NCBI GenBank assembly: GCA_015228925.1
Contig: JADGCQ010000001.1
Coordinates: forward strand, 50,669 to 114,668
Length of the DNA: 64,000 nucleotides
Direction: 5' to 3'
Source: Magnetococcales bacterium
GTDB taxonomy: Bacteria > Pseudomonadota > Magnetococcia > Magnetococcales > UBA8363
Below, piece after piece: positions 2,349 through 51,568 of this stretch. The notes under the pieces were generated by a model, which saw only the letters and a list, made by a program, of their open reading frames with translations, was not told the origin of the DNA and did not search any database. Within the stretch, counting starts at the first letter, position 1. The number at the start of each line of letters is the position of its first letter. The translations under genes and the position numbers were made by a program.

Positions 2349-3281
2349 TTATCCCTTCCGTACCGCAAACATCTTTGTTGAACCGGCGGCTTGAATGCAG
2401 ATGAAATCAAGGCCATTTTTCACAATGACATCAAGATTCGTTGCGATGTTTTGCGGCAAAGCAAAGATCCCGCATGTCGAAGATATTTCGCCATAAGGGG
2501 CGGGCATGTTGGTCGTATTCATCCAGGCAATCGGGAAGAACGGAATGACTGAACCGCCAGAACCATCGGGAACTTTCTGGTCAATCGACGCAAACGTGGA
2601 CATCATGGTGTGGACCGCGCCTTGAGTCCCGGCGTGGGCTGTCATGAGGGTTTGCGTTGTGAGAAGCGTTGTTCCAGCCTTTGTCAAGATTCGTGGGGGA
2701 TAGGTGCCACCGCCATTTGTCGCCATATCGCCCAGGTTGGTGTATGCAAATGGGGGCCACCCGGCAATCGGGGTATCCCATGGGCAAACCCTTGTCCTCT
2801 CCACACATCCGCTTGCACCGGAGTTTGTCGAACTTCCCCATGTCGCGGAGACGTTTGAAAACATCAAGACAAACCGAGCCGTTGCAAAAATGTGAACGGT
2901 GCCTGTCACGGACGTTGAAAATTGTTGTGCGCCGGACGTTGTGGCTGAGTTGTTGCAAAGGTTTGTCCCTGTGTTGGTGGTCTCATCCCATGCCTCATAA
3001 ACTTTTTGCAGGACAAACCCGGCAGTATTTAGGTCCAGGACAACATACTTGAAGGCGTTTGCGTCATCGGCCAAAGGGGCTTTGATGCACATCGCATTGG
3101 TTCCAGCCGTGGCATCATGCAATACCCACCCGGCAGCGATGGTGGAAAGAATGCTGGTGTTGGGTTTGTCGCAACTGGCAGACAGGTTGGCGACGTTGGT
3201 TTCACCCGTCAAGATTGCCACAAGATCAGCAAGGATGTTCGCGGCGGTTGAACCGGCTGAATAGACGTATTTTGCGTACAT
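2349..3281 (-). CDS. Hypothetical tail fibre-like protein (310 aa)
   Basis: Same-strand late operon. Thr/Ser/Gly/Ala-rich. No catalytic motif recognised. Confidence 0.4.
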   Translation of the reverse strand: MYAKYVYSAGSTAANILADLVAILTGETNVANLSASCDKPNTSILSTIAAGWVLHDATAGTNAMCIKAPLADDANAFKYVVLDLNTAGFVLQKVYEAWDETTNTGTNLCNNSATTSGAQQFSTSVTGTVHIFATARFVLMFSNVSATWGSSTNSGASGCVERTRVCPWDTPIAGWPPFAYTNLGDMATNGGGTYPPRILTKAGTTLLTTQTLMTAHAGTQGAVHTMMSTFASIDQKVPDGSGGSVIPFFPIAWMNTTNMPAPYGEISSTCGIFALPQNIATNLDVIVKNGLDFICIQAAGSTKMFAVRKG

Positions 3282-3298
3282 GACGACTCCATCCTATG

Positions 3299-4123
3299 TT
3301 AAGTTAGTCTAGGAAACTGTAAATTACCGCCTGTCCATTTGCAGTTTGGGTATCCATAAAAACACGAACCACCAACATCTTTAAAAGTATCTAATATTTT
3401 AGCTGTTGCTGGTAGTGTACGAAGATCCCAATGACCCAACACGAATATTTTCGTATAAAGTGTGAATACAATTGGAGTGTTTAATGTAATGTTTGTGTTT
3501 TCAAACGGACGTGGACCACTTGGAAATTCTATCGAACTAGAATAAGGCCCGGCTGGCCATGTGTTCCATTGATCGAAATATTGGTAGGAGCATGACAGAT
3601 AATATTTAGTTGGTGTTTGCGGCGGTCCCCATTGTGTTTGTCCTTCGCCAGAACTTATATCCGTAATTATTGGACGATAAAGCCCTAATGCGGTAAAAGA
3701 TCCATAACTTAGAAGTATCTTTCTTCCATTAGGCGCAACTTTATGGACCGTGTAGAATGGCTTATAAGAAATTCCCGGCGGGACTATCTTATTAACTATT
3801 CTACGCAAATAATCTTCCGTTGAGAGTGTGAAAATAAGCACTAGATTGTAATTAACTGTGTCTTGTCTCACCCAAACGTCTAATTCGTTAGTAAGTCCCC
3901 AACTGCTTCCCCATATTCCTGGTGCTGGTTCACCATTCCATGGATCATCTTGTAACCCAGACGCTCCAGCATAACGGAAAAACCTCCACGACCATCCTGC
4001 CCACCAATCAAATTCACCGTTCAATACAACTTTATCTTGAGGGAGAGAAATTTTCTTAATCGACTGAAACGGACCGAGATTAATTTTCAACCCTTTTTTG
4101 ATAGTCAAAATAATACTCCACAA
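3299..4123 (-). CDS. Hypothetical tail-module protein (274 aa), Trp/Tyr/Pro-rich
   Basis: ORF abuts 4124..5401 with no gap. Lower GC than its neighbours by eye. Confidence 0.4.
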   Translation of the reverse strand: MWSIILTIKKGLKINLGPFQSIKKISLPQDKVVLNGEFDWWAGWSWRFFRYAGASGLQDDPWNGEPAPGIWGSSWGLTNELDVWVRQDTVNYNLVLIFTLSTEDYLRRIVNKIVPPGISYKPFYTVHKVAPNGRKILLSYGSFTALGLYRPIITDISSGEGQTQWGPPQTPTKYYLSCSYQYFDQWNTWPAGPYSSSIEFPSGPRPFENTNITLNTPIVFTLYTKIFVLGHWDLRTLPATAKILDTFKDVGGSCFYGYPNCKWTGGNLQFPRLT

Positions 4124-5401
4124 TCAAGGAAGGCTAGCAGTGCCAGAGCCAGGGCTTGCAGGACTCTTTGAAAACTCATCAACATCGTTTAACATCTTTA
4201 ATGAGAATTTTCTTCCAGTTTCTTCGTCGTAACCTGTGACCTTTATGGTCTTTACAATGTCAATAAAAATCTCTGGATCATCTTCGTCAAGCTGATACCT
4301 TTTAGTTACAGTCTCCCGTGTTCCTGCCAATTCTAAATACTCATCAACATTGCTGGTATCTGCTTTCTTTTCATCCGAAAGGCCGCTTTTTTCTGCTTTT
4401 GGGTAACATGTAGGAAAGAACTTCCTCTCAAAAGTTGCAGTTTGCGCTGATTTGTCAGACATTACAAAGATCCGAACCGGAGCAAGCTTTCCACTTGAAA
4501 TATCATTTAACCACCATTGATTGCCTGAGAACAACCAATCGGATTCTGTAATTAAATCCTTCCCAATGTCGTAGGAAATTGCGTACTCTTCAAATTCAGG
4601 CTCATAGGATACAATGATTGCACCAATGGCATCCACCGTTGTTGACCATTCCCCTCTTGCTCTGTCATATACCGGACCTGGGATTTCTTTACCAGATAAA
4701 TCACGAAAGACGGTTGTATGGCGCAATACACATACTGGTTGATCGTAAAAATATTTCAGAGACTTAAATTTTGACCCTTCACCTTCCCATGAAAGCGTTT
4801 CAAAGATCGGAATTGATTTCCTTTGTATTCTTTGCGCGGTGTTGCACTTTACATTAACCGTTCCATAAACAGGTACTGGTTGAACAAAGTCATACCATGG
4901 CGCAAAATCCGGCTTATAGCTCACACTTTGTCCATCCCACCCCACCACCCTCGTCATGGTGTAGGTTTTCTCGCCGTTGTCCACAATTATTTCTAGACTT
5001 TTAGCGGTATCTTTTGAACAATATATCCGTACAATCTTTTCACCCATGGACATCATGAACACATTACCAGGGCTTCTCCAGGCGGTTGCGAATGTAGCCT
5101 CGTCAGCAAACGCTCTTCTAATTCCTTCTATCGCGTTGTTAATTCGACGTGTATTTTCTTCCTTAGAAAAGTAATTATCGTATGTGTACGAATAAGTTAC
5201 AGTGTTGTCTTTCATCTTTGGAGCGTTGAGCGATAGGCCACCCACAATATTCCCATTGACGGTAAAGACTTTATTGTTACTGTATTTTAAGAGGATTGGA
5301 CTTCCTGAATTGTCATCTCCCGTAACAATCTCCAAAGGGAACGTCTTTGAAAAAGAATTAAACGCTACTTGGAGATCGGCAGAAATGTCAGTCATGATCA
5401 T
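4124..5401 (-). CDS. Hypothetical tail-tip / baseplate protein (425 aa)
   Basis: Same-strand operon with a 4-nt overlap with the upstream ORF (5398-5401). Lies in the block after the tape measure. Confidence 0.45.
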   Translation of the reverse strand: MIMTDISADLQVAFNSFSKTFPLEIVTGDDNSGSPILLKYSNNKVFTVNGNIVGGLSLNAPKMKDNTVTYSYTYDNYFSKEENTRRINNAIEGIRRAFADEATFATAWRSPGNVFMMSMGEKIVRIYCSKDTAKSLEIIVDNGEKTYTMTRVVGWDGQSVSYKPDFAPWYDFVQPVPVYGTVNVKCNTAQRIQRKSIPIFETLSWEGEGSKFKSLKYFYDQPVCVLRHTTVFRDLSGKEIPGPVYDRARGEWSTTVDAIGAIIVSYEPEFEEYAISYDIGKDLITESDWLFSGNQWWLNDISSGKLAPVRIFVMSDKSAQTATFERKFFPTCYPKAEKSGLSDEKKADTSNVDEYLELAGTRETVTKRYQLDEDDPEIFIDIVKTIKVTGYDEETGRKFSLKMLNDVDEFSKSPASPGSGTASLP

Positions 5402-6438
5402 TCACTCTCGCCCCAAACACCGATGGATACAAAGTTTCCAGAAAGCGATGGTGAATTCGCAGAAATTGTTCTGCACTCCCAAATCGGAATCGCAGCAGGG
5501 TGTGTTTTGAATGTCAGAACATCGCCAATCGCCCACGTTCCAGCCCATTTTGTAAGTGGCAGCGTGAAATATGGCCGGGAAAACTCGGTGTTTTGCGGAG
5601 CAAAATTTGCCGTAGTTGAGCCGGAACCGACAAGGCCAAGCGTGTTCCCGCTGCATGAGAATGCCGTTGCGCTGGTGAATGTGATCGTCCAGGTTTGTTC
5701 GATCCCGGCGATGAAATCAGCCAGCCTTTCGGTAAGGAGTTCCGGCGGTACTGCACCTGACCCATTCCACCCGGAAAATGTACCTGTACTGGATGATATG
5801 GCCCATGTGTCGGTCATTGCCCACAAATTCCCGGCTTCGTACACGGTCGAAACAAAAGTGTCCGATGAAGCATAAGAATTCAGCAGCATTGCGCCGACTT
5901 CAAATGTCAGCGTTGCAACATCACCACTCCATGTCACACCAGACACATCATTTTTAATCCGAATGAATTCTTCCAATCCATCACTTTCAACCGTGGGCTT
6001 ATTTGAGATGCGCACAAGATTGCCAGGGATGAAAATATTGTCCGCAGCATTTTCAACCGTGACTTGTATTGAGTTCGCACCAGCAGTCGCGGAAGCCAAC
6101 AAAGCACCGCTTCCATGATTCACATGGCTACCAGAAATATCAGCCTGGGTGTCCACCTGAGTTCCAGCAAAGAAAAATACCCTGTCGGCAGCAGCAGTCG
6201 GTTGATGGACGAAAATTCTCATATCGATACCAGTCAGATTGTCGCTGTTGGCATTTTTGATAAACACTTTTCGCCATTTGATTGAGCCGTCCTTGCGTTC
6301 CCGGCCTGGCACATCGGCCCAAAGATTATTCTTCTGCCCTGATACGCTCTCATTGTTCGACATGCGACCGCCGTTACTTGCCCCATCGCTGACGATTTCA
6401 GAACGGAAGAATTTAATGTCCGTAGATTCGATTGACAT
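5398..6438 (-). CDS. Hypothetical distal tail protein (346 aa)
   Basis: Second gene after the tape measure. Tightly packed. No motif recognised. Confidence 0.45.
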   Translation of the reverse strand: MSIESTDIKFFRSEIVSDGASNGGRMSNNESVSGQKNNLWADVPGRERKDGSIKWRKVFIKNANSDNLTGIDMRIFVHQPTAAADRVFFFAGTQVDTQADISGSHVNHGSGALLASATAGANSIQVTVENAADNIFIPGNLVRISNKPTVESDGLEEFIRIKNDVSGVTWSGDVATLTFEVGAMLLNSYASSDTFVSTVYEAGNLWAMTDTWAISSSTGTFSGWNGSGAVPPELLTERLADFIAGIEQTWTITFTSATAFSCSGNTLGLVGSGSTTANFAPQNTEFSRPYFTLPLTKWAGTWAIGDVLTFKTHPAAIPIWECRTISANSPSLSGNFVSIGVWGESE

Positions 6439-24867: not shown

Positions 24868-25088
24868 TATACAAGCCCCTTCGCGCTCTTGATGCGTAAC
24901 CGACGAACACGCCTTCTAGGTTGATCTGTTGCAAATTGCATTTCACTTTCGATCAGTGCCAATGCTTTTGTGGCTTGTTCAAGATCGAAAACCACCATTT
25001 TATCGCCATGGGTTACACTTTTCGTCAGCGACGCAACCTTTGCGATGATGGCCTGTCTTTTGGCTTCAAGTTCAGCATAAGTTGCCAT
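24867..25088 (-). CDS. Head-to-tail joining protein, lambda gpW-like (73 aa)
   Basis: Small ORF exactly between the GpA-type terminase and the portal, as in lambda. Confidence 0.7.
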   Translation of the reverse strand: MATYAELEAKRQAIIAKVASLTKSVTHGDKMVVFDLEQATKALALIESEMQFATDQPRRRVRRLRIKSAKGLV

Positions 25089-26998
25089 TATCTATTCATC
25101 CATTTTGATTTAGTTGCCTGACGTTTTTTACGTGGAGTTGTTCTTTCCACTACTGGAACATCACTACCAATCTCCAAACCCTTCCTTACTGGATACTCAA
25201 GAAGCAAACCTGCGCTTACGTTTAAACGCATACCAAGTGCATACAGACCATGCAAAGCAGCCATACTGTAAACGGTTACATCAAGAACTTCGTTTCTCAC
25301 GCCATCCATTATCTTCCATACGCGCACTGATCTGCCTTTATGGAATCTTTGGGCAACACTTTCTGAAGTGAGTTGTTTGAAAAATTCTGCATCTCGCTCC
25401 ATGGGAAAGTGCATGAAGCCCGGTCCCGGCTCTCTCATCTTCAACCTTGAGTAGATTGCCTCTTTGAGAGCATCAACGCCGATGACATAAAGCGGGATTT
25501 TGCCGACATTGTTCTTGGTGGGCTTCTTCGGCCAAACTGGATACCCTTGACCACCCTTACCCTTGATGCCCCAAATCTTTCGCTCCTGCCGGTTGCGAAC
25601 AAATCCACTGACTTTCAATGTGTGATGCCCACCTGTATCAATGCAAACGGCACTGATTTTCATATCCGGCATTATTCTGGAATGCTGAAAAGTGGTTTTC
25701 AGGAGATTATCAAGATCCTGCCAGACTGCGCTTCCAGATGGATCGCCGATCAAAATCCGGTAATCAATCGACCAGCATTCTTCATCCCGGCCCCATCCAT
25801 AAATGCCAACTTCCAACCGATCTCCCTGCACGTCCACACCAGCAGTCAGCAGAGCCACCATTGGCGGCAGATGAGTTTTACTGAAAAACTCACGCATACC
25901 CATGAGAGCATCACCATCGACACTCTCACTGTCCTCAACCCAGGACTCGCCCAGCTTGGTGTTGACCCAAACCTTCAAACGGACCGGATCTCTATAGGCT
26001 TGACCATGTTCAACCGCTATTTGCCCCCAGGACACCCACCCAAGCGGGCTGTAGAGGGAAGACAAATGGAACCCGGCTACCAGACCGCTACCCGTGGCCT
26101 CTGCGATCCAACGCCCGTTTTCCAGCATCCATCCCTTACGATGTTCCTGGATCTTTGCCTCGCAATGGATACAGACGTAATAGGCTTTTGCACGATCTTT
26201 TTCTGGCCATTTTATTTGCGACCAAACCAAAACCTGTTCCTTGGAGCATTCTGGACACGGGACGTAATACCGGCGTTTATCGCTTTCATTGAAAGCGGAT
26301 TCGATGCGAGAAAAACCTCTGATTGTCGGGGTGGAAACAATCAGGATTTTTTTGTTTGAAAAATTCGCTGTCCGTTGGAGGGCAAGGCCCAATGGATCAC
26401 CCTCACCATCCACGTCGCCTGGATAGCGGTCTACTTCATCAAGGAAAAGGAAACGAACCGGCATAGCAGCCAAACCCGCCGCCGAATTCGCACCGACCAT
26501 CCTTAGAATCCCACCAGGAAATTCTTTAACAAAAATGGTGTTTCCACTGTCCCTGGATCGCGGCTCACTTATCAAACCCCGCAATGCCGGACTGGAATTA
26601 ATCATTGGAGCAAGCCGTTGCTTGCTGTACATTTTTGCCAGTTCAACGGTTGGCTGAACCATCAGCACAGGCCCTGGAGAATAGTGGGCAATGAACCCAA
26701 GCCAATTCAGACCCGACTCTGTTTTTCCAAGCTGTGATCCGGCCATAAACACAACACGCTCGACAGCCGACGACGGTGACAGGCAGTCCATAATCTCCCG
26801 GAGATATGGCGTTCTGTTCGTCCTCCAGTCACCCGGCCCGCTTGAAGCAGTCGATGAAAGCTTTCGGTACTTGTCAGCCCATTGGGACACTTTGATCATT
26901 GGTTCAGGACGTAAGCCATTTTTGAAAGCTCTCTTGAATACTGTTGCAACATCGACAATGCCATCGGCATCGGAATACTTAACTCTCAAGGTCTTCAT
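25088..26998 (-). CDS. terL: Terminase large subunit, lambda GpA family
   Basis: Start moved to MKTLRVKY (AGGGGA upstream). Motifs ...FMAGSQLGKTE (Walker A-like)...RFLFLDEVD... Size ~636 aa. Overlaps the terS 3' end. Confidence 0.9.
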   Translation of the reverse strand: MKTLRVKYSDADGIVDVATVFKRAFKNGLRPEPMIKVSQWADKYRKLSSTASSGPGDWRTNRTPYLREIMDCLSPSSAVERVVFMAGSQLGKTESGLNWLGFIAHYSPGPVLMVQPTVELAKMYSKQRLAPMINSSPALRGLISEPRSRDSGNTIFVKEFPGGILRMVGANSAAGLAAMPVRFLFLDEVDRYPGDVDGEGDPLGLALQRTANFSNKKILIVSTPTIRGFSRIESAFNESDKRRYYVPCPECSKEQVLVWSQIKWPEKDRAKAYYVCIHCEAKIQEHRKGWMLENGRWIAEATGSGLVAGFHLSSLYSPLGWVSWGQIAVEHGQAYRDPVRLKVWVNTKLGESWVEDSESVDGDALMGMREFFSKTHLPPMVALLTAGVDVQGDRLEVGIYGWGRDEECWSIDYRILIGDPSGSAVWQDLDNLLKTTFQHSRIMPDMKISAVCIDTGGHHTLKVSGFVRNRQERKIWGIKGKGGQGYPVWPKKPTKNNVGKIPLYVIGVDALKEAIYSRLKMREPGPGFMHFPMERDAEFFKQLTSESVAQRFHKGRSVRVWKIMDGVRNEVLDVTVYSMAALHGLYALGMRLNVSAGLLLEYPVRKGLEIGSDVPVVERTTPRKKRQATKSKWMNR

Positions 26999-27554
26999 CA
27001 CTATCCCCTGAAAGTTCAAGTAATTGAAGATTAACAAACCGTTCTAAAGTGATTCTGACCTTACGGGGATCACCACCCAATTCAGCAGCAATTTCACCAC
27101 TCATTCTGCTTGGCCATGATTCCCATGCTGCCCGGTTTTCCCGGCCAGAATCCCTGGCAGCTTTCCGAACCTCATCAGCATCCAAAAGCTGCCCTGTCTT
27201 GTATTTCCTTTCCAACGTAAGTAATTGCCCCCGCTCAATTTCTGACTTTAATTTCGCAAGAGTCAGTTTCTTCGTCAGCGTATTACCTGAATAGCTGTGC
27301 GGATTTTCCTGGTCGTGCTGGTCGTGTTGGTCTTCCTTGGAATGCGGATCTTCATGACCAGCCGCACCGTAACGCCCAAGCTGACGCGCCGGATTCCGTT
27401 GAAGGGCAAGAGCCTCCATGGCTTGCTCTGGATCGACCTTCCCATCCCGTAAAATGACGGTCCCGTTTCTCACCAACTTGCTTACGTACTGCCTGGAAAA
27501 CTTTTGGCGTCGTGCAAATTCGGATTGAGTGATCAATATTTTATTTTTCGCCAT
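26979..27554 (-). CDS. terS: Terminase small subunit (Nu1-like N-terminal winged HTH)
   Basis: Immediately upstream of and overlapping terL. N-terminus ITQSEFARRQKFSRQYVSKLVRNG looks like an HTH. His/Asp/Gln-rich linker. Confidence 0.65.
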   Translation of the reverse strand: MAKNKILITQSEFARRQKFSRQYVSKLVRNGTVILRDGKVDPEQAMEALALQRNPARQLGRYGAAGHEDPHSKEDQHDQHDQENPHSYSGNTLTKKLTLAKLKSEIERGQLLTLERKYKTGQLLDADEVRKAARDSGRENRAAWESWPSRMSGEIAAELGGDPRKVRITLERFVNLQLLELSGDSDEDLES

Positions 27555-27674: not shown

Positions 27675-29030
27675 TTATTCTTCGATGCTGACGTTCCGTT
27701 CCGCAGCCACGGTTTCAAATGTTTTCCCGCCAGAGCCGTCCAGGTAGACGATCCGTCCGGTCGCTTTGATGTACCGTTTCACGGCAACGTCAACAAAATT
27801 CGGTGATAATTCCATTGCATAAACTTTGCAACGTGCGTTTTCGCCAGCTATGATTTGGGAGCCAGAACCGGAGAACGGTTCGTAGCAAACATCGCCCGGA
27901 CGAATGTGCATCCTCATTGGTATGGCAAAACAATCAAGCGGCTTCGGAGTCGGGTGGTCAGGGCGTTCATCGCCAAGGAGAGAATCGATCTCCCATACCG
28001 TGGCCTGGGAACCTGAGTCCTTGTTGTGATGCGGAGTCTTTCCCCTCATCCAGCCAAATAAGCATGGCTCATGGTTCATCATGTAGAGCGCCCGGCCCAT
28101 AACCTTGTTGTTTTTCTTCCAGATGATTTGCTGGTGAACGAAAGCACCGGCACGTTCCCAGGAAGATTCAACCATCATTTGTTTCTTGTAGGCGTGCCAG
28201 CAGTACCATGCCGCACGCTCATCAATCGCATGTTCCACAGCAATCTTGATAAGCCGATCAAAGAACTCATCTCCATCGCCATTGGAATCCCACGTCGTGC
28301 CATGCGCTGTAGACCAATCTCTTTCAACTTCACTGATCTGTTTACCTTCGGCGCGTTTCTCATCACGCTCTTTATTGACGCGCTTAAAGCCAGCCGGATG
28401 ACTTGCACCAGAATAATTGATCAGGTAGGGAGGATCGGTGGCAAACAGTTTTGCCCTCTCCCCGTTCATAAGCCGGATGACGTTTTCTTCGTTCAGGCTG
28501 TCACCACAGAGCAGACGGTGTTCCCCCAAAATCCACAAGTCACCCGGTTGCGTGACAGCGACAGTCGGCGGTTCCGGGATTTTGTAGTCCAAGCCGTCCG
28601 ATTCACCTGAACCTTCAATCTCTTTTTCGATACCAGCAAGTAATTTATCAATCTCATCGGAGTTGAATCCGGTCATATCCAAGTCAAAGCCATCATTTGA
28701 AAGATCTTCAAACTCAAGCCGCAATAATTCTTCATCCCATTCGGCCCAACTTGCCGATCTATTCGCCAGCAAACGAAATGCTTTTATTTGCGTCGGTGAT
28801 AGTTCGTCTGCCAGTGCTACCGGGACATTTTTCAATCCGCTTTTAATTGCAGCCTTCAATCTCAGATGGCCATCAATTACAGTTCCGTCACTAAGCGCAA
28901 CGATTGGAATCCGAAACCCGAACTCCTTGATGGCAGCAACCATTTGCGTTACCGCTTCATCATTCTTTCGCGGGTTACGAGCGTATGGTGTGAGTCGTTC
29001 TATCGACCATTCTTCCACTTTTAAAGGCAT
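27675..29030 (-). CDS. ParB-like nuclease domain fused to a beta-class N6-adenine/N4-cytosine DNA methyltransferase
   Basis: N-terminus ...YARNPRKNDEAV..MVAAIKEFGFRIPI... is ParB/Srx-like. Motif IV DPPY (FATDPPYLINY) precedes motif I FSGSGS, which is the beta-class order. Confidence 0.85.
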   Translation of the reverse strand: MPLKVEEWSIERLTPYARNPRKNDEAVTQMVAAIKEFGFRIPIVALSDGTVIDGHLRLKAAIKSGLKNVPVALADELSPTQIKAFRLLANRSASWAEWDEELLRLEFEDLSNDGFDLDMTGFNSDEIDKLLAGIEKEIEGSGESDGLDYKIPEPPTVAVTQPGDLWILGEHRLLCGDSLNEENVIRLMNGERAKLFATDPPYLINYSGASHPAGFKRVNKERDEKRAEGKQISEVERDWSTAHGTTWDSNGDGDEFFDRLIKIAVEHAIDERAAWYCWHAYKKQMMVESSWERAGAFVHQQIIWKKNNKVMGRALYMMNHEPCLFGWMRGKTPHHNKDSGSQATVWEIDSLLGDERPDHPTPKPLDCFAIPMRMHIRPGDVCYEPFSGSGSQIIAGENARCKVYAMELSPNFVDVAVKRYIKATGRIVYLDGSGGKTFETVAAERNVSIEE

Positions 29031-29249
29031 TGGCTTGTCATCCGTGTAAACCGATGGTTAACAAAAAAATATTAAAAATTTCAATTCATTGTATGCACGA
29101 TGCGATCTTGCGGGGACTTTTTTCAGAGGCAATGTAAACCTTTTGTAAACGATGCACGCTAGAGATTTTGCGAGCTTCGCGCGGAACCCGCTGATAATAC
29201 CGCTGGTAGTACCTTTGATGGCCATCATTAGCACTATAGATCGAAACTT

Positions 29250-29621
29250 GGACCGATCATTGCGTTAGGTAAACGGATCGAAGATTGCACTATACATCCT
29301 GGACCAAAGATTGCACTATAAATATTGGACCGATCATTGCTACCAAACAAATGGACCAAAGAATGCAATAAACAAACGGATCGAAGATTGCATCAAGCAA
29401 CTGGACCGAAGATTGCACCATACAATCGGACCAATCATTGCATCATAAGGATTGGACCAAAGATTGCGACCATGTATTGGACCAATCATTGCACTATACA
29501 GACTGGACCAACCATTGCATTACATAACGTGGACCTACCATTGCATTGGATACATTGGACCGAAGATTGCGACTATGTAATGGACCAATCATTGCTAAAC
29601 ATAGTCTGGACCAGATATTGC
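29250..29621. repeat. Iteron array: 15 direct copies of GGAYCNAHNATTGC spaced 25-26 bp apart
   Basis: Copies start at 29250, 29275, 29301, 29327, 29353, 29378, 29403, 29428, 29454, 29479, 29505, 29531, 29557, 29582 and 29608, all in the same orientation. Two subtypes are present: ..ATCATTGC and ..AAGATTGC. Confidence 0.9.
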
Positions 29622-30064
29622 TACGCGCACCACATACTAAGCCCTAGCCTATCCATGCCCTAGCCATGCCTTGCCCATGGCGTGGCGTGGCGTGGCCGTG
29701 CCTTATCCCCTTGGCATTGCTCCAATTTCCCGTTTTCTATAGCCAAAAACAACAAGTTACAAGATTCTTGCAACATGTTTTTCGTTCAATATCAATGCGT
29801 TGAGTGACCGTTGCTATGAAATTCGTGAATTTTAATTTGAAAAATTATTCAACAATTTCAATATATTACGATTTGAATTCTTAGTCTAAAAAACTCCACA
29901 TAAAACGATGTGTTTCAAGAAAAATCAAGAAAATTCACGATTCTTTTCTCTTTTGTTCCGTTGTTTTTATTCACATTTTATCGACTACCCGTTTTTTTAT
30001 CCTTAGATTTAAAAAATAGTGGTTGATAAGAGATTATATCGGAGCGATAGTTGAATTGTCAGTT

Positions 30065-30121
30065 GGGAACAAAGAGAGAACAAACAGGGAACAAACAGGG
30101 AACAAAACAGGGAACAAAAAC
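30065..30121 (+). repeat. Five tandem GAACAAA(C)AGG-type units in the 5' leader of the first plus-strand gene
   Basis: gggaacaaagaga gaacaaacagg gaacaaacagg gaacaaaacagg gaacaaaaac, ending 25 nt before the ATG at 30147. Confidence 0.8.
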
Positions 30122-30146
30122 TTTAAAATATTTTGGAGAAAATAGA

Positions 30147-30761
30147 ATGAAACAGATCGGACAACAATTCGACTTTGAAAATTCCAAGAATATGGATGCC
30201 GAGTGGTTGAACTTTGAAAATGCTGCACAAGCAGCACATGAAAGCATCCTGCAAATACCATACTACAGTGATGCCATCCAGGGTGAAATCCTGGAAGAAC
30301 AAGAAGAAAAACAGGAAGAACAAACCGAAAACAAGTTTGATGACGTTATCTTGGAAGTTTGCAACGGAATCATGAAGCTTTGCATCGTTGACAGGGAAAA
30401 GGATGCAATCAAACTCCTGAAAGTGGTTGGAAACAAATTCGGATTTGAGTCAGATTATTACAATCTGGCTCTTGAGACTTTGGTCGATACGACCAAAAAA
30501 ACAGGATTGGCCAAGGGATTCGGATCGGCCAAGGGCAAAAAGGTTAAGGACCACAAGAAAGATGCAGTTGAATCGTTGTTGTTGCGCCCATGTGGCGCAA
30601 ATGCTACGGAAATTCATGCCATCACCGGATGGCAGATTCACACCATCCGAGCGTTCGTCTCTACCCGTAAGAAGCATGGTTTCAATGCTTGGAAGAATGT
30701 CATGCAAAAAAGTGGTGAGAAGCCAATCACCACTTGGTTCATCGAACGGATAGCTGCATAA
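30147..30761 (+). CDS. DUF3489-like (winged-helix) domain protein with acidic N-terminal region
   Basis: GGAG RBS before the ATG at 30147. The C-terminus ...LLLRPCGANATEIHAITGWQIHTIRAFVS... matches the DUF3489 pattern (RP.GAT..E....TGWQ.HS.RGF.S). Confidence 0.6.
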   Translation: MKQIGQQFDFENSKNMDAEWLNFENAAQAAHESILQIPYYSDAIQGEILEEQEEKQEEQTENKFDDVILEVCNGIMKLCIVDREKDAIKLLKVVGNKFGFESDYYNLALETLVDTTKKTGLAKGFGSAKGKKVKDHKKDAVESLLLRPCGANATEIHAITGWQIHTIRAFVSTRKKHGFNAWKNVMQKSGEKPITTWFIERIAA

Positions 30762-32985: not shown

Positions 32986-33336
32986 ATGGAAACCATCGAA
33001 ACCAAAGAAGTCAGCGTCCAAGACATACTGGACAGCGTGTTCACCACAGCTACCAATCCAGGAGATGCTCGCCAGACAGGGAGTGCCGCAAGACTCCCCA
33101 AAGCCATCAACTCACAACATCACCATAACGTCGTCATGCTCCTACTCCATCGGCCTTGTGGCGTCACGCAACAGCAGATCACCGATGCTACCGGGTGGAA
33201 CGCAGCCAATACCAGGATGTTTTTCTCCATGGCCCATCAGCGGTTCGGTGTGCTTGTGTCCATCAAACAGACTTTGAAAGACGGCGTAAAAACGATCTCT
33301 TACAGCGTTGTCGAGCAAGCCCAAAGGAGCGCATGA
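32986..33336 (+). CDS. Divergent DUF3489-like protein (116 aa)
   Basis: AAGGA RBS. ...LLLHRPCGVTQQQITDATGWNAANTRMFFS... aligns by eye with the other two DUF3489-like C-termini. Confidence 0.5.
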   Translation: METIETKEVSVQDILDSVFTTATNPGDARQTGSAARLPKAINSQHHHNVVMLLLHRPCGVTQQQITDATGWNAANTRMFFSMAHQRFGVLVSIKQTLKDGVKTISYSVVEQAQRSA

Positions 33337-34195: not shown

Positions 34196-35389
34196 ATGAA
34201 ACACACACAAAAATTAAGCGGAACGCAGGAAAGCATCATCTACAGCGCAATTCTGCGGTTAGGGAAGTCTATTCATCCTTTACCGTACTACCTGAACGGC
34301 GCACCAGCGAAAAAGGTGCTGGCAGCCCTCCGGTCGAAAGGGTACATCGATGACAAAGACATCGTAACCCAGGAAGGTATTGAAATGTTCAATGCCTTCC
34401 GAAAGAGCAAAGGTGTCCAGGAAGTCATATTGATGGAAAACAGTGAACCGCTTACGGAGCCTACCATCGTTTCCATAGCGGAAACCATGGCCGAACCCAT
34501 GCCGGAAACCATGGCCGAGCCTATGCCGGAAACCATGGCCGAACCTATGCCGGAAACCATGGCCGAGCCTATGCCGGAAACCATGGCCGAACCTATGCCG
34601 GAAACCATGGCCGAACCCATGCCGGAAACCATGGCCGAGCCTATGCCGGAAACCATGGCCGAACCCATGCCGGAAACCATGGCCGAGCCTATAGCCGCCG
34701 ATGAACCAGCGGGCGATCCGGCAGCCGACGCTCCGGCATCCGACGCTCTTGCAGCACTTTCGGACGCTGATCTTTCAAACTCAGCTTTTCTCGAAAACTT
34801 GAAAGAGTTTGTCGATCAAACCGTTTCGGAGCATGGAGAAAAACATGTTGCAGAGCCAGAAATTTGTGATTTTAAGGAACTGGATCTGGACAAACTGGAT
34901 TCTAAGGAATCGGAAGTGGATGAATATCTTGCGATTTACATCCCAGAGATTCATAAACGCATCGACATGCGAAATTGGACCTCTGTACATAATGCGCTTG
35001 TGTTTATCAGGGAGAAACACGGGAAAGCGAGCTTCCATCACCTAGTTGCCACCACCGAGGCATTGAAATACACTTTCAATGCCGGGATGGATCAAGGTAA
35101 AACATACGTCACATGCAGATCACAAAATGGAACCAAAAAAGCCAAAGTGATTGAGATGATCATGCGACCTGAAGGCGTCACGCTCGATGAAATCTTTGAA
35201 CTCACCAAATGGCAACCACATTCCATCAGGGGGTTCATTTCGACCATCAAAAAGGATCTTGGCATTGAGATCCTTGTCTCCAAGGAATGGATTGCCGGAG
35301 CAAAAGGCAAACCGACCACAACATACAAGGGTGTTTCGCCACAAGGAACTACCGATCAGGCCACCGAACTGGCCAACATGGCTGCATGA
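34196..35389 (+). CDS. DUF3489-like C-terminal domain protein with (ETMAEPMP)n repeat linker (397 aa)
   Basis: GGGAG RBS. The C-terminus ...MIMRPEGVTLDEIFELTKWQPHSIRGFISTIKKDLG... is a strong DUF3489-like match. Central 24-bp repeat array. Confidence 0.65.
   Translation: MKHTQKLSGTQESIIYSAILRLGKSIHPLPYYLNGAPAKKVLAALRSKGYIDDKDIVTQEGIEMFNAFRKSKGVQEVILMENSEPLTEPTIVSIAETMAEPMPETMAEPMPETMAEPMPETMAEPMPETMAEPMPETMAEPMPETMAEPMPETMAEPMPETMAEPIAADEPAGDPAADAPASDALAALSDADLSNSAFLENLKEFVDQTVSEHGEKHVAEPEICDFKELDLDKLDSKESEVDEYLAIYIPEIHKRIDMRNWTSVHNALVFIREKHGKASFHHLVATTEALKYTFNAGMDQGKTYVTCRSQNGTKKAKVIEMIMRPEGVTLDEIFELTKWQPHSIRGFISTIKKDLGIEILVSKEWIAGAKGKPTTTYKGVSPQGTTDQATELANMAA
34481..34696 (+). repeat. 24-bp in-frame tandem repeat, 8 full units plus 1 variant (gaaaccatggccgaRccYatgccg = ETMAEPMP)
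   Basis: Counted directly. Units start at 34481, 34505, 34529, 34553, 34577, 34601, 34625, 34649 and 34673. Only synonymous third-position differences distinguish them. Confidence 0.9.
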
Positions 35390-41295: not shown

Positions 41296-42058
41296 CCTTG
41301 TAACGGCGTAACAGACAATTTGCCTGCTGTGCGGGTTTGTTACAAATTTTGTTACGCAAAAATTTTAACAATTATAGCCACTTCCTTATATATATATAAA
41401 TATGTAACATATATATATATATATATATATAGATGGGGATATATATGAAAATATTTTTATGTGTGACTCTCTCCTTTTTTATATGGATATATCCCGGAGA
41501 AGTTTGTTACGCCATTTTTTGTCACAAACCGCTCCCAAGCCAACAGAAAAATCATTATAAAGCGTTGTTAATGATTAAATATAAAATTGTACCAGTTTTT
41601 GGAAAATTTTCCAGTTGTAACAAAAATCGCCATGGGCAGGCCCAAAATTTTCCCGATTTACCCACCATGGAGGTGCTTTTGGAAAAAATTTTGGGAAAAA
41701 TTTTCCAAAAACACGTCCAAAAAAAATAATTTTGCCCCCAGAAAAAATAATTTCGGCCACGTTTTTGAAAATTTTTTGGGAAATTTTTCCACTTTTCCAA
41801 AAAATTTTTCCACTTTTGGGGAAATTTTTCGGGAAATTTCCAAAATTTTTCCCGGCTCCAAAAATTTTTCCCAAAATTTTCCAAAATTATTTTTCGTGCC
41901 AAATAATATTTTTGGACCAAGAAAAGTTTCCTTTGTAATAAAAACAAGCACATGACCGTTTTCCCCCAAAAAAGCCATCGGGAAATTTTTTCTGGAAATT
42001 TTCCCCGGTCGAAAAATTTTCCCCGGTCGAAAATTCTCAAGATGCCAAGAATACAAAT
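41296..42058. other. Candidate replication origin / architectural DNA region: TTTGTTAC repeats, (TA)n, and an array of G/C-flanked AnTn tracts
   Basis: GTTAC/GTAAC at 41300, 41308, 41339, 41351, 41404, 41506 and 41617. At least 17 AnTn blocks lie between 41603 and 41925. An 18-19-bp tandem aaattttccccggtcga x2 sits at 41996-42030. No credible ORF. The region abuts the primase-helicase gene. Confidence 0.5.
41387..41431. repeat. (TA)n dinucleotide tracts
   Basis: (TA)6 at 41387-41398 and ~11.5 AT units at 41409-41431, separated by aatatgtaac. Confidence 0.9.
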
Positions 42059-45016
42059 TCAGATCACAATTTCATCATCGTTGATGCGAACCTGATTCAG
42101 ATCATCTTTACCATTCCAGCAGAGATCCAACGGAACCCAGACTGCGCGAGTTGGTCTACCGTTGATGCGGAGCGTCTTATCAACTTCCCTCACCGTTTTA
42201 AGCGTCAGAAGCATCGGATGCCACTTCTTTTCCCACGCAGTTCCCCGCAAAATATCTCTGATGGCCGGAGAGTTGTGTGAAATAAGGACTCCATCTCTCC
42301 AATCATTGGCATCCACAATCTGCCCGTTGCACGTTGCTCCTGCTTTGTATGGCGAATCGGTTCGGAACCCATATCTTTGCAGGTGTTCCTCTGCAACATC
42401 TTGTGAAAAGCCAGCAAGTTTCCTTTCAAGAGCGATGGCAATCAATTCCGATACTGTCATGTGGCCAAAGTTTTTACCGTCATGTTGGATATTGATCTTG
42501 TGATACATCAATTTATTGAGCAATATGTTTTCGTTTTTCGACAGTTCATCTGTAGTATGATCAAGCCAATCCCGTTCCTTGATCCATTCTAAAGCCGCAG
42601 CAGGAGTGATTTCTTCGTCTTTGTACGCAAGATAAGCCCCCGCCAGGAGTGGCCCAAGCTGGTCAGCCGTTCGCCTTGACCCAAGATGCAGGGCAACCGC
42701 ATTAGTAAATGTTTCGATGTTTTTAAGTAAAACATGGACGTTGTTGATGACACGCACACGCAAGCCATCGATAAACTCATCAGTGAGATAATCACTTACC
42801 ATTTGCATAAGTTCGTTGTAATGTTGCTTGTTTCTTTCTTTGTCTTTAGCTGTGCAATCTTCCGGCTTGACCAATTTCAGTAAGGTTATCCGGGATTCGT
42901 CCTGGAAAGTGTTTGCGCCATCGACCACTGAAGCGAAAGCAAAGCAAGATCGCACAACAAAAGCCTTTGCCCCCGATTGGTTTTGCGTACCTTTATAGAT
43001 ATACCCACCAGACGATGAAATTCTCGCAAGTTCAATAATCCCTTGGATTAAACTGTCGGTGTACTTATCGCCACTGCGTTCGCTTTCATCGAAAATAACT
43101 GGGATTGCATCGGTCTTAATGGAATGCCGAACCGCAGCTTCGGTAGTTCTTCCATATACTGAGATGCAAAAATTGTTGAGGATTCGATGGACAATTTTTT
43201 TCATCACGGTCGTTTTGCCGCACCCGGATTCTCCGTAAACCCAAACATGTGAACGCCAAGGGAGGACGCCAGAAACCAGGGCAATCATGATCCAACCAGC
43301 AAGGCAATATGCTGAAATTGGTTTTTCCCAATGGAGCTTCTTGCAAATTTCCAGCAGCCTCCTTGAATGATTCGTATCAAGTGGGGCAGCAAGGCAATTG
43401 AACGGGATTTCTTGCCCAGCTTCGTAAAAGTTTTTCGAGCGAAAAGCAGCAAGAGATACAGATTCTCTGTTTATTATCAACTGGTTTCCCAGGTTCAGAA
43501 CGATCTGGTCTTTATCCATCCATGCCCCACGCCCACGGATCAAATCCCTGGCAACGAACACCCCCCGCGCTTCTGCCATGCGCATCAAAGCGTTCATGGC
43601 CGCATCCCAATTAACGCCTGATCTTTGCGGGAATCTCCTGGCCCAAAAATCAAGTGGAGCCATCATGATCAAGTTGTTCTTTGTGTGCGCCGATGACGAT
43701 AACTCAAGTATTTGCATTGTGCCACGAGGATAATAATAATAGACATTCCCGTTGTAGCCAAGAACGCGAAAAGGCATTTCCTCATCGAACGCAAAAACAG
43801 GGTTCGGAATGGCCTGATTCGCTTGACTTTCACCATTTTTGGAAATGTTTATTTCTGTCTGGCCATCGCCATGGTCGTAATCATCTAAAGGTGGACCATC
43901 CAAATGTGGGGGTTCTTCGCCATAATAGTCCTCTGGGTTCTCCTGAACTGGGATCTCCTGAACTGGTGGGATCCAATCTTTAAGCCGGATTTTCACCCAT
44001 CGCTGTATTGCGTCCACATCCCATTTCCCTTCAACGTCGGCAACATCCCATCCTTCTTCCAGCTTGTCCGATTCTTCGATTCGGCAAATCTGCACCGTGC
44101 AGCCCAAGCCGACTAGGATAGTGCCGATGGCTTCCGCTGCTTTCGTTCCAGGCACGTCATTGTCAGGCAAGATTCTAATGTGCCGCCCACGCAACGGGGA
44201 AAAGTCGGTTAAGGCGTATGCGTTTGATCCACCAGACCAGGTGAGTACCGGGTGATCAGGGAATATGCGCTGCGCTGCGTCGGCGGTTTTTTCACCTTCC
44301 GGCAAGTACACCGATGCGCCAGGGAAAAGCTTTAGAGATTTGAGATTGTAGAGCGGTCTTGGTGATGCAAAAGCTTTCCATCGCCAGCTTGCGTTAGGGC
44401 TTTCCTCCGACTTGCACCAACTCTGAGGCAGGATTTGTTTTTTCCCCAGTTCCGGTTCTTCATCCAGCGGTCGCTCTTTCTCCTCTGGAGGATCGAATCT
44501 GGCGATACGCCCAACGAGCCTACCTTGAATGTCGTGATAACTCCAAATTTTGCTGGCTTTTCCGAGTTTATAGTGGCTGTCAGGTGGTGATGGAGCATCG
44601 GGATCAACAAATGGCAGAGCCAGCCATTCGGTCGGGCGTGGATCGTCTTTCTTTTTGCCCGCTTTACTCTGGCCAGATTGGTTCCACTTTTTTTCTTCGA
44701 TGTTGAGATTGAATCGTTTGGCTATGGCAACCGCAGCTTTGGTTTGGTCTTTTCCTGTTGGTGATCCTTTTGTTTGGATCGCCGCATACAAAGAGATGAG
44801 ATCACCCCCTTTTAAACCGGATGCAAAGTCCGACCATTTGCCAGTTTTCACGTTTATTGAGAGCGAACTACCTTTGCTCCCGGTTACGTCCCCAATTTTA
44901 AATTCATGCCCATCCAGCACACCCGCCGGGAACCACTCAAAGAGCAGGTCGGTGGAACTCAGCAATGCTGTGTTTGCGATTCTTTCAAAGTCTATCTTGC
45001 CGTTTTGCTGCGTCAT
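42059..45016 (-). CDS. Bifunctional primase / SF3-type helicase (Toprim + DUF927-like NTPase)
   Basis: N-terminus ...KTGKWSDFASGLKGGDLISLYA... is primase-type. A Toprim-like segment reads ...YLPEGEKTADA...ILPDNDVPG... Walker A is VYGESGCGKTT. Start moved to MTQQNGK (GGGGG upstream). Confidence 0.8.
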   Translation of the reverse strand: MTQQNGKIDFERIANTALLSSTDLLFEWFPAGVLDGHEFKIGDVTGSKGSSLSINVKTGKWSDFASGLKGGDLISLYAAIQTKGSPTGKDQTKAAVAIAKRFNLNIEEKKWNQSGQSKAGKKKDDPRPTEWLALPFVDPDAPSPPDSHYKLGKASKIWSYHDIQGRLVGRIARFDPPEEKERPLDEEPELGKKQILPQSWCKSEESPNASWRWKAFASPRPLYNLKSLKLFPGASVYLPEGEKTADAAQRIFPDHPVLTWSGGSNAYALTDFSPLRGRHIRILPDNDVPGTKAAEAIGTILVGLGCTVQICRIEESDKLEEGWDVADVEGKWDVDAIQRWVKIRLKDWIPPVQEIPVQENPEDYYGEEPPHLDGPPLDDYDHGDGQTEINISKNGESQANQAIPNPVFAFDEEMPFRVLGYNGNVYYYYPRGTMQILELSSSAHTKNNLIMMAPLDFWARRFPQRSGVNWDAAMNALMRMAEARGVFVARDLIRGRGAWMDKDQIVLNLGNQLIINRESVSLAAFRSKNFYEAGQEIPFNCLAAPLDTNHSRRLLEICKKLHWEKPISAYCLAGWIMIALVSGVLPWRSHVWVYGESGCGKTTVMKKIVHRILNNFCISVYGRTTEAAVRHSIKTDAIPVIFDESERSGDKYTDSLIQGIIELARISSSGGYIYKGTQNQSGAKAFVVRSCFAFASVVDGANTFQDESRITLLKLVKPEDCTAKDKERNKQHYNELMQMVSDYLTDEFIDGLRVRVINNVHVLLKNIETFTNAVALHLGSRRTADQLGPLLAGAYLAYKDEEITPAAALEWIKERDWLDHTTDELSKNENILLNKLMYHKINIQHDGKNFGHMTVSELIAIALERKLAGFSQDVAEEHLQRYGFRTDSPYKAGATCNGQIVDANDWRDGVLISHNSPAIRDILRGTAWEKKWHPMLLTLKTVREVDKTLRINGRPTRAVWVPLDLCWNGKDDLNQVRINDDEIVI

Positions 45017-45341
45017 AAATACCCCCGTCAAGCAATCTTAGCCTTACAATGTACATTGATTGTTTGTAAGACGCGATGGCACGTAATCCCATCTCCACGT
45101 ACATAAATTTTGCAAGTTCCGTCCATTCACTGGATTCTCTTTCTTTCCCTTCGACTACAAAACAAGGCACATCGTTTCTTATGTGGCGAATCAGCGCAAG
45201 TTTGTTTTCTCTTATTTTTTTTAATAATTCTTTTTGGATTTTTTTTGTGTCACCTTTAAGCACAAGAACATTAAGATCCTTTATCTCAAAATAGCATCCG
45301 TGTGCATTGACTCTATCTATAATCTGTAATGGATATACCAT
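44985..45341 (-). CDS. Hypothetical protein (118 aa)
   Basis: Same-strand operon. Overlaps the primase 5' end by ~30 nt. Confidence 0.35.
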   Translation of the reverse strand: MVYPLQIIDRVNAHGCYFEIKDLNVLVLKGDTKKIQKELLKKIRENKLALIRHIRNDVPCFVVEGKERESSEWTELAKFMYVEMGLRAIASYKQSMYIVRLRLLDGGIYDAAKRQDRL

Positions 45342-50611: not shown

Positions 50612-51568
50612 ATGACCACTACTGACAGCAATCCTGACAAACTCGACCGTGATATTAAATGTCTTGGCATCAGGTTTAGAGTTGGTGAGATTGGATTCTG
50701 CACAAGATCCATCGAAGAATACAAGTGGTTGGCAGACGTTTGCCCACAATGCAATGCTTTTAAGTCATTTTCGGAAGAAACCCGGACAAAATTGAGTGCG
50801 TCGTTTGGAATAAGAAAGATACGGGCTGCTGCGGCCATTGCAGCGGCCAAGGCAAAAAAAAAGCTGTCTGAGCCGAAAGTCGCTCCAGCAGTTGAAGTTC
50901 CCGAACCAATGGCCGAACCAATGGCCGAACCCAAGGCCGAACCAATGGCCGAACCAATGGCCGAACCAATGGCCGAACCCGTTTCAAAGCCAAGGTTAAA
51001 GCCCGGTCCTAAGCCAAAGTTAAAACCCACTCCCGTATCCATGCCGGAACCAGCACCAATACCCGTTCCAGTGCCGGATCCCGTTCCCGCTCCAGTGCCG
51101 GAACAGAGTTGGATGCAAAATCGGGTGAAACCAGAAGTTGCTCCAAAGAAACCCCGTGGTAGACCACCGAAGCCATCTTTGGAAAAATTTCTAAGAGTTC
51201 CAGGCAACGGGACTAATCTGATCGACGGGGAAACTTTCACGGGGAAATGTGGAGAATTGGTTTCGATCCCTGAATGCAAGCCATCCGACTGCGAAAAATG
51301 CAATATCGAACGTAAGAGATCGCAAGATGAGGAATGCGCTGCAAAAACAGGCTGGACAACCACTCCACCAGTCCAAAAACCAAACCGCCAAAAACCGGAG
51401 CAACCAAAAGTCGATCACACCGGGACAAGGCATTTGCGCGGTGGGATGTTCCCCGCTGATTCAGATTTCATCCGACGGTTTGACCGTGTGTGCGAAGAGT
51501 TGAAACTGGACCGTGGCAGCGTCGTGAAAATCGCCGTCGCAAAAATGATCAAAGAAATGGGTTTTTGA
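50612..51568 (+). CDS. Hypothetical protein with (MAEP)n / Pro-rich linker and RHH-like C-terminus (318 aa)
   Basis: N-terminal Cys pair (CPQC). 12-bp repeat gaaccaatggcc x6 at 50903-50974. Pro-rich PKPKLKPTPVSMPEPAPIPVPVPDPVPAPVP. C-terminus ...FIRRFDRVCEELKLDRGSVVKIAVAKMI. Confidence 0.5.
   Translation: MTTTDSNPDKLDRDIKCLGIRFRVGEIGFCTRSIEEYKWLADVCPQCNAFKSFSEETRTKLSASFGIRKIRAAAAIAAAKAKKKLSEPKVAPAVEVPEPMAEPMAEPKAEPMAEPMAEPMAEPVSKPRLKPGPKPKLKPTPVSMPEPAPIPVPVPDPVPAPVPEQSWMQNRVKPEVAPKKPRGRPPKPSLEKFLRVPGNGTNLIDGETFTGKCGELVSIPECKPSDCEKCNIERKRSQDEECAAKTGWTTTPPVQKPNRQKPEQPKVDHTGTRHLRGGMFPADSDFIRRFDRVCEELKLDRGSVVKIAVAKMIKEMGF

Follow-up and report, generated by a model that had tools for sequence, protein, structure and literature searches.

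The repeat array and its setting

We analyzed a repeat array in a 64,000-nucleotide stretch of Magnetococcales DNA, hereafter the window (assembly GCA_015228925.1, contig JADGCQ010000001.1, positions 50,669 to 114,668 of the forward strand), which sits within a 148-kb contig of a metagenome-assembled genome (MAG). The element that carries the array is a lambda-type prophage with a cohesive-end site (cos). Its packaging genes form a minus-strand operon in the order ParB_N-methyltransferase (ParB_N-MTase; 27675-29030), small terminase (TerS, phrog_57; 26979-27554), large terminase (TerL; 25088-27037), lambda-family portal (PF05136), and head and tail genes, while a 7-kb cassette with three DUF3489 proteins lies beside the array on the plus strand. 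The ParB_N-MTase joins a ParB_N domain to an N6_N4 DNA methyltransferase domain (PF02195 and PF01555 only), TerS has a helix-turn-helix (HTH)-like N-terminal segment, and TerL is a GpA-family enzyme with ATPase and nuclease domains (PF05876 and PF20454, E-values of 6e-96 and 4e-89). The nearest relatives of TerL are about 65% identical and come from other Magnetococcales MAGs, from Magnetofaba australis and from Magnetococcus marinus MC-1, where several copies occur; this strain has at least seven prophage copies carrying this terminase. A blastn search of the 27-32 kb region against cultured phages gave zero matches, and an exact-protein look-up found the ParB_N-MTase absent from the records.

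Between operon and cassette lie fifteen copies of GGAYCNNNNATTGC, all on the plus strand and spanning 29250-29621. They start at 29250, 29275, 29301, 29327, 29353, 29378, 29403, 29428, 29454, 29479, 29505, 29531, 29557, 29582 and 29608, so that every spacing is 25 or 26 bp and the mean period is 25.57 bp, exactly as a previous sequence-only reading of this DNA had described. The match is exact in 14 of the 15 copies, the copy at 29353 having AATGC, and the rest of the window contains, on both strands, four one-mismatch matches, which is the chance level. Tandem Repeats Finder calls the array with periods of 25, 26, 50, and 51. The unit reads T-GGACC-(R)A-NN-ATTGC on the plus strand and GCAAT-NNTN-GGTCC-A on the minus strand, the direction of the packaging operon. 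It is built from two 5-bp blocks, GGACC and ATTGC, whose centers are about one helical turn apart, with invariant A's inside the core and a T favored just before it. The two interspersed subtypes reported earlier are real; they carry ATC or ACC vs. AAG before ATTGC and follow each other in irregular order. A degenerate sixteenth copy on the plus strand, GGCCATCATTAGC (also listed as GGCCATCATTAGCACTATA), followed by ACTATAG, occupies 29220-29236; it precedes the first full copy by 30 bp and is 32-48 bp away from the nick predicted below.

Identity between copies is 95% at the 11 core positions and 37% at the 10 spacer positions, the latter against 32% expected from composition, and neighboring units are no more alike than units far apart. 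Because the core is 95% identical while the spacers are near the random level, the sites are under selection for core and phase. By the same token, the array is old rather than a product of recent slippage, since core and phase have been kept, the spacers are random, and neighbors are no more alike. The open reading frame (ORF) of 112 aa at 29325-29663, which had been taken as a translation of the repeats, does lie inside them and matches no Pfam family. An Rfam scan of the array found no family and both strands fold no better than shuffled sequences (z about -1), giving no support for a structured or sponge RNA. Likenesses of the ACTATA spacer to a T7-type promoter, an Int arm-site, or an IHF site were dropped by eye, there being no matching enzyme or att context. 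When two adjacent motif copies were searched in three public collections, the viral collection gave zero matches. The genome collection matched at a palindromic element resembling REP (L007, L010) and at a perfect tandem of 26 bp in a MAG of the Lewinellaceae (L008). These matches were taken as coincidence, as were those in the metagenome collection, which were lone motif pairs without a phased array.

On the cassette side the array is followed, as had been noted, by a GC-rich island (about 29640-29710) with small internal repeats (CCTAGCCATGC x2-3, TGGCG x3.8) and by an AT-rich zone (about 29715-30146) roughly 100 bp from the array. A sigma-70-like promoter of the DUF3489 cassette, TTGATA-17-GATAGT, is found at 30023-30051 on the plus strand and is kept in relatives as GCTTGATAAG..N17..TATGGCT, including relatives that have no array. 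Between this promoter and the first DUF3489 start codon (30147) stand 4.8 copies of GGGAACAAACA (30065-30118), likely an operator or leader element. The first DUF3489 protein is encoded at 30147-30761 on the plus strand and its paralogs at 32986-33336 and 34196-35389. All three are candidate binders of the array; DUF3489 proteins model as MarR/ArsR-like winged helices with a mean pLDDT of 65, and of 70-88 within the domain. A homologue search with the adjacent DUF3489 protein returned only that protein, and PADLOC gave only methyltransferase matches in the neighboring cassette. The long two-domain form is common to the window and one related locus, L022, over about 300 aa. In the window, an in-frame 24-bp x9 repeat at 34479-34697, inside the gene at 34196-35389, encodes a (PETMAEPM)n linker that joins the N-terminal domain to the C-terminal winged helix; the L022 protein has the same layout with a different acidic linker.

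Farther away in the window are lysis-type genes and genes for a primase/SF3-helicase, a Mor-family activator, a cI-like repressor, RecT, and Rha. Among the window ORFs scanned, none was recognized as an integrase, ParA, Rep initiator, or sigma-54 activator, consistent with the earlier remark that no integrase is visible. Several early-region ORFs also contain long in-frame tandem repeats (55869-56159, 57514-57695, and 50901-50979, with units of 33/66/99, 24/36, and 12 bp).

A predicted cos between the array and the terminase genes

IMG/VR contigs with a TerL that is 46-53% identical to the window's repeatedly terminate within some hundreds of bases on the upstream side of terL. Seven of them begin at GGT[AC]A..CGCG..CTAG[TC]G, the start of an eighth is shifted inward by one base, and a ninth from a further lineage (L088) begins at the same place, the junction being internal in its relative L085. 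Recurrent ends at one homologous nucleotide are the pattern expected of cohesive-end genomes. The contig-end expression has a single match across both strands of the window, at 29188 on the minus strand, reading GGTTCCGCGCGAAGCTCGCAAAATCTCTAGCG. When the roughly 128,000 window positions were ranked with a weight matrix derived solely from six of the contig ends, the same site came first, with 13.2 bits vs. 10.6 for the next best. The matrix also has its top match just upstream of the ParB_N-MTase gene in five Magnetococcales relatives (L055, 22.8; L052, 16.8; L020, 14.1; L022, 12.5; and L053, 12.4 bits), that of L055, GGTTCCGCGCGATCGCGGCATTTCGCTAGCG, being nearly the window's sequence, and in MC-1 (L024) the expression marks cos at the equivalent position. 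A cos at the DUF3489/terS junction was rejected, as the motif is always upstream of the ParB_N-MTase. The records of AcaML1, WO, and the Roseobacter CRP phages are circularized or in prophage order and carry no end information.

The cosN of this prophage is predicted at about 29177-29188, where the minus strand reads GGTTCCGCGCGA and where the left cohesive end would start; a 12-nt extent and overhang is assumed by analogy with lambda. It is recognized purely by homology, that is, by the termini of the nine related contigs and the matrix rank. GpA-family TerL, TerS, and portal are encoded beside it, as at a lambda-type cos. The conserved segment that follows (29157-29176, minus strand; ..AGCTCGCAAAATCTCTAGCG) ends in the CTAGCG common to the contig ends and stands where lambda has I2.

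For known cos sites, the functions of cosQ, cosN, and cosB have been described (PMC4669245, PMC9026076). At the cosQ position of the window, -26 to -20 from the predicted nick, lies the minus-strand heptamer AGGTACT (29208-29214), a 5/7 match to the relatives' GG[GT][TA]CCT. The latter is found at -27 to -21 in eight related loci with an internal junction; L048 has GGGTCCC and L085 has GGGGCCT. In lambda, GGGTCCT stands at -30 to -24 and corresponds to the cosQ reported by Wieczorek and Feiss. On the terminase side, two minus-strand copies of GTTTACA at +39 and +50 (29133-29150) are candidate R-type sites for TerS (cosB), and a third copy lies at +138 (29045-29051). In every relative, a short motif specific to the phage recurs near +46 and +61, with several more copies in both orientations to about +550; these motifs read GGTTGACA, GGTTTGC, GGTTCGC, or GGTTGYCA, and GTTTACA is at the same location in the window. 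Short repeats of this kind on the terminase side are the classical cosB picture.

The order toward the packaging genes is therefore cassette promoter, AT-rich zone, GC island, array (29621 to 29250), degenerate copy, AGGTACT, cosN, GTTTACA, and ParB_N-MTase. As the predicted cosN falls between the array and the packaging genes, the array belongs to the cosQ side and not to cosB; it lies 62-433 bp from the predicted nick on the right-end side, opposite the terminase genes. Its unit, GCAAT-N4-GGTCCA, also differs from the window's R-type motif. The sequence-only reading had correctly placed the array 220 bp from the start codon of the ParB_N-MTase (29030) and had rightly remarked that fifteen copies are far more than the R sites of lambda. 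Its proposal of an expanded cosB-like platform for TerS, on the other hand, is not supported, given the position of the array and the three GTTTACA copies that the cosB side has of its own. Right-end DNA of lambda is packaged last and injected first, and by analogy the array would be the last DNA packaged and the first injected.

Distribution among related loci

We compared 11 loci with an internal cos junction, the window and ten related loci, over 2 kb on the right-end side. Within this distance, repeat arrays were found in the window and L022 only, so that the array is lineage-specific and not a general requirement of this terminase family. One of the ten related loci has a comparable array, and its sequence differs. 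In all Magnetococcales-type relatives, whether the array is present or absent, the gene that comes first after cos is that of the ParB_N-MTase; it occurs in L020-L024 and L052-L055, of which L022 alone has an array.

The array of L022 is a noncoding repeat block of about 1.3 kb at the matching right-end position (4424-5743) and is unlike the window's in sequence. Part of it consists of about 17 near-copies of the phage's own R-type motif (GGTCGACA vs. GGTTGACA), five true copies of which stand just before cos. These near-copies imply that TerS-type sites can multiply on the right-end side in this phage family. The units of the block are 45-bp repeats with GGTCGACAATCAG, 68-bp repeats with hairpin-like CTGAGG..CCTCAG, and TGGTTGACACGGGCAGTTGACAAGT x2.5.

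The rest of the cos architecture is common to the window, L020, L022-L024, L052, L053, L055, L032, L048, L072, and L085, in the order GG[GT][TA]CCT at -27 (a 5/7 match in the window), GGTNNCGCGCGA..CTAGCG at the nick, phage-specific repeats of 7-8 bp from +46, and ParB_N-MTase. In most relatives (L023, L024, L052-L055, and L098, which is AcaML1), a minus-strand cassette starting with DUF3489 is inserted between the ParB_N-MTase and terS/terL genes; in the window and L020 the DUF3489 cassette is on the other side of cos. L055 has two adjacent HU/IHF-family genes right after the ParB_N-MTase, beside cos (2838-3405), which recall that IHF acts at lambda cosB.

What the array may do

Of the functional proposals made in the sequence-only reading, the part that stands is a phased, selected array of probable binding sites in the neighborhood of cos; the specific roles are not supported in the form in which they were given. 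We tentatively favor the reading that the array is a putative protein-binding platform and an accessory part of a lambda-type cos, which would aid the terminase at that site. Since lambda-type phages normally leave this side of cos almost empty, the array probably represents an unusual addition to the packaging signal. The repeat block of L022 at the matching right-end position would be a precedent for it. On this reading, 15-16 phased sites in one orientation for a sequence-specific protein would make up the final ~430 bp of the virion chromosome, just upstream of cosQ and cosN, and a phage protein would coat them cooperatively. One candidate binder is the terminase itself, since GGTCC, present in every unit, forms the core of GG[GT][TA]CCT, the consensus for cosQ; another is a winged-helix protein, for example one of the three adjacent DUF3489 paralogs. 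Each site would offer a pair of invariant 5-bp blocks separated by one helical turn, and as the sites recur every ~2.4 turns, successive sites would face nearly opposite sides of the helix, an alternation that would fit a wrapped or filamentous complex. Such a complex may act during the work of terminase at cos. It may help to build the cutting complex on concatemeric DNA, or else slow and position the translocating motor as it nears the terminal cosN, which is the job of cosQ in lambda. The GGTCC core of the units together with the weak AGGTACT suggests a link to the termination signal, although this is a thin basis and was recognized post hoc.

The comparison with lambda cos and its relatives (21, N15, and the cos of phage-inducible chromosomal islands, PICI) shows likenesses and differences. 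The systems are alike in the GpA-family TerL, TerS, and lambda-family portal beside the site and in the GC-rich cosN-like sequence, which is here homologous to physical contig ends. They are also alike in short terminase-side repeats comparable to R3, R2, and R1, which in the relatives begin at about +46. The heptamer at the cosQ position is common to lambda and the window's relatives, the window's own heptamer there being only a 5/7 match. Unlike lambda, which has a single 7-bp cosQ and nothing more upstream of cosN, the window has 15-16 phased 14-bp sites over 400 bp, and its phage has a ParB_N-methyltransferase gene between cos and terS.

Several points weigh against the accessory platform. 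Of the ten related loci whose cos junction is internal, nine are without such an array, which means that the terminase family needs none, and the arrays of L022, being different in sequence and having hairpin-like units, may be unrelated. Because nhmmer with a 45-nt contig-end profile gave no significant hit and left the site unlisted, in a search without power, the assignment of cos rests on the rank test and synteny and not on mapped ends. The motif is not of the R type, and to read it TerS would have to possess a further specificity; the likeness of GGTCC to cosQ comprises five bases, was seen post hoc, and involves a sequence, GGWCC, that is self-complementary; and binding by any named protein is a proposal drawn from sequence. 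A noncoding gap beside cos, moreover, also tends to collect accessory DNA.

It is possible, but we think unlikely, that the array is instead an operator or titration bank for a phage regulator such as DUF3489, acting on transcription around cos, either of the divergent early cassette or of the ParB-MTase/terminase operon. The MarR/ArsR-like winged-helix model of DUF3489, the three paralogs directly beside the array, and the position of the array within a divergent intergenic region are all consistent with this idea, as is the finding that L022, the only other array-bearing relative, shares the window's long two-domain DUF3489 form. However, DUF3489 genes occur in all of the relatives without an array, the motif is found at no other promoter in the 64 kb, and fifteen phased direct sites are atypical of operators. 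The cassette also has its own conserved sigma-70-like promoter about 400 bp from the array, and the GGGAACAAACA x4.8 repeat is better placed to be its operator. The retention of that promoter in relatives without an array likewise argues against the earlier suggestion of an activator-binding array for the divergent promoters, and the promoter-array, origin, and parS readings are all disfavored.

The position of the array at the right end allows two further readings. In the first, which we consider rather improbable, the array is a multimerized cosQ-type signal or end cap, whose fifteen phased GGTCC sites would form a nucleoprotein brake that slows the terminase over the last 400 bp and positions it for the cut at cosN; as this DNA is the first into the next host, the complex may in addition protect the right end while it is free. 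In the second, which seems to us more improbable still, it is a polar signal near the end, directed at the processing of DNA ends by the host, either a Chi-like cluster or a protein-coated barrier to the entry of RecBCD/AddAB at the free right end of cut or injected DNA. The array does lie at the right end in a single orientation, and some lambdoid phages carry 20-32 Chi sites in one orientation near that end (PMC12315714). Outside the array (29240-29625), GGACCA keeps the array-sense bias whatever the direction of the genes, with 24:8 overall (5:0 in plus-strand genes, 15:8 in minus-strand genes, and 4:0 in intergenic DNA) and 11:2 for TGGACCA, but these are small numbers obtained post hoc after several k-mers had been tried. 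As in the Chi clusters of phages LLS and MD8, many polar motifs of one orientation are thus gathered at the right end of a cos phage, but those are single contiguous octamers, and abundant right-end Chi typifies phages without a recombination module, whereas this phage has RecT (PMC12315714). In addition, Chi requires neither strict phasing nor a second block, and ATTGC is unskewed (98:109).

We regard as quite improbable the idea that the units are -24/-12-like elements of sigma-54 (RpoN), binding the host holoenzyme in stable closed complexes and pointing inward from the first-injected end as tandem promoters or as a sigma-54 sink. GG-N10-GC is present in 15 of 15 units, in the frame TGG......A TTGC, with TTGC in 14 of the 15 (ATGC at 29353) and A or T as the following base in 12, and all units point to the plus-strand cassette. 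In spacing and flanks they agree with the sigma-54 promoter form TGGCA[CT]-N5-TTGC[AT] of a published promoter list (PMC3844500), and the general pattern TGG...N...TTGC[AT] is shared, each unit fitting TGG-N9-TTGC[AT]. Yet the A.T pair of TGGCA that sigma-54 specifically contacts, at -23 (PMC3844500), is replaced by C in 15 of 15 units (TGGACC/TGGATC), and at two more positions the units always have A where sigma-54 promoters leave the base free. The units score 10-12.5 bits, against 13.5 bits for the best chance match in the window, with a rough matrix built from remembered frequencies and having a maximum of 19.2 bits. Neither an enhancer-binding protein nor any PF00158 protein was found among the window ORFs scanned, there is no nearby downstream gene, and nothing that resembles a sigma-54 element stands at the corresponding place in the relatives. 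The footprint of the sigma-54 holoenzyme is longer than the 25-bp spacing of the array, and we know of no precedent for fifteen tandem sigma-54 elements at 25 bp.

Replication or incompatibility iterons, which had also been proposed, appear very doubtful; they would be bound by an initiator, with the adjoining AT-rich zone as unwinding element. Iterons (P1 incC/incA, R6K, RK2, and F ori2/incC; 14-22 bp) resemble the array in their single orientation, conserved core, degenerate spacers, and phasing, and the bipartite core, which is like that of iterons read by two winged-helix domains, suggests a monomer reading two successive major grooves. An AT-rich region about 100 bp away and winged-helix proteins encoded next door would also suit an origin. 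However, iterons are normally spaced at about 22 bp, or about two helical turns, vs. 25.6 bp here; no Rep-type initiator was seen among the window ORFs scanned; and the array is away from the replication genes, the primase-helicase being 12.5 kb distant. Furthermore, the AT-rich zone contains the conserved cassette promoter, nine of the ten related loci lack a comparable array, and a far better origin candidate is present at 41.38-42.05 kb. The block at 41380-42045 has a (TA)23 run and about 20 repeats of the GGAAAWTTTT/TTTTGGAAAA type in both orientations, directly 3' of the gene for the 990-aa primase/SF3-helicase (42059-45031, minus strand), and by analogy it is a candidate replication origin of the SaPI/PICI style. 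An ORF called within it (41555-42040, minus strand) is probably spurious.

Least probable of all is a centromere or parS-like loading site for the ParB_N-MTase or another partition protein in a plasmid-like prophage state: the array adjoins a ParB_N-domain gene, no integrase was found in the 64 kb among the ORFs scanned, and phased repeat arrays typify some centromeres, but the ParB_N-MTase has no HTH or other parS-reading domain and stays first after cos in the relatives without an array (nine of the ten related loci that keep the gene), no ParA, ParM, or TubZ was found among the window ORFs scanned, integration beyond the window is likely because the window lies inside a 148-kb MAG contig, and ParB_N-MTase fusions are common in phages without a parA partner (PMC12704722). 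The array does recall the known repeat centromeres in its many phased direct repeats, which there nucleate a filament-like or wrapped complex, and in lying beside a gene annotated as 'ParB', but it differs in that no partition NTPase was seen among the window ORFs scanned and that the ParB_N-MTase has no domain for reading a centromere. Such centromeres include F sopC (12 x 43 bp), R1 parC (10 x 11 bp), and pBtoxis tubC.

The array is a variant among cos-associated repeats, a kind already known, and even as a bank of regulator sites or as a decoy of the Chi-like or sigma-54-like sort it would be an uncommon design, though of narrower interest. Whatever its function, cos has now been located by homology for the prophage group of the Magnetococcales, Acidithiobacillus, and Wolbachia type, with the methyltransferase fusion as a conserved cos-proximal gene. 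Recognition of the genome end by the translocating terminase is the least understood step of cos packaging, and lambda depends for it on one 7-bp cosQ. Provided that the array is indeed linked to packaging, the prophage would offer a natural comparative system, in which 15-16 selected, phased sites with a cosQ core stand beside cosN. If the array is an end cap, it would represent a cos architecture undescribed for lambda-type phages and would give a handle on termination signaling.

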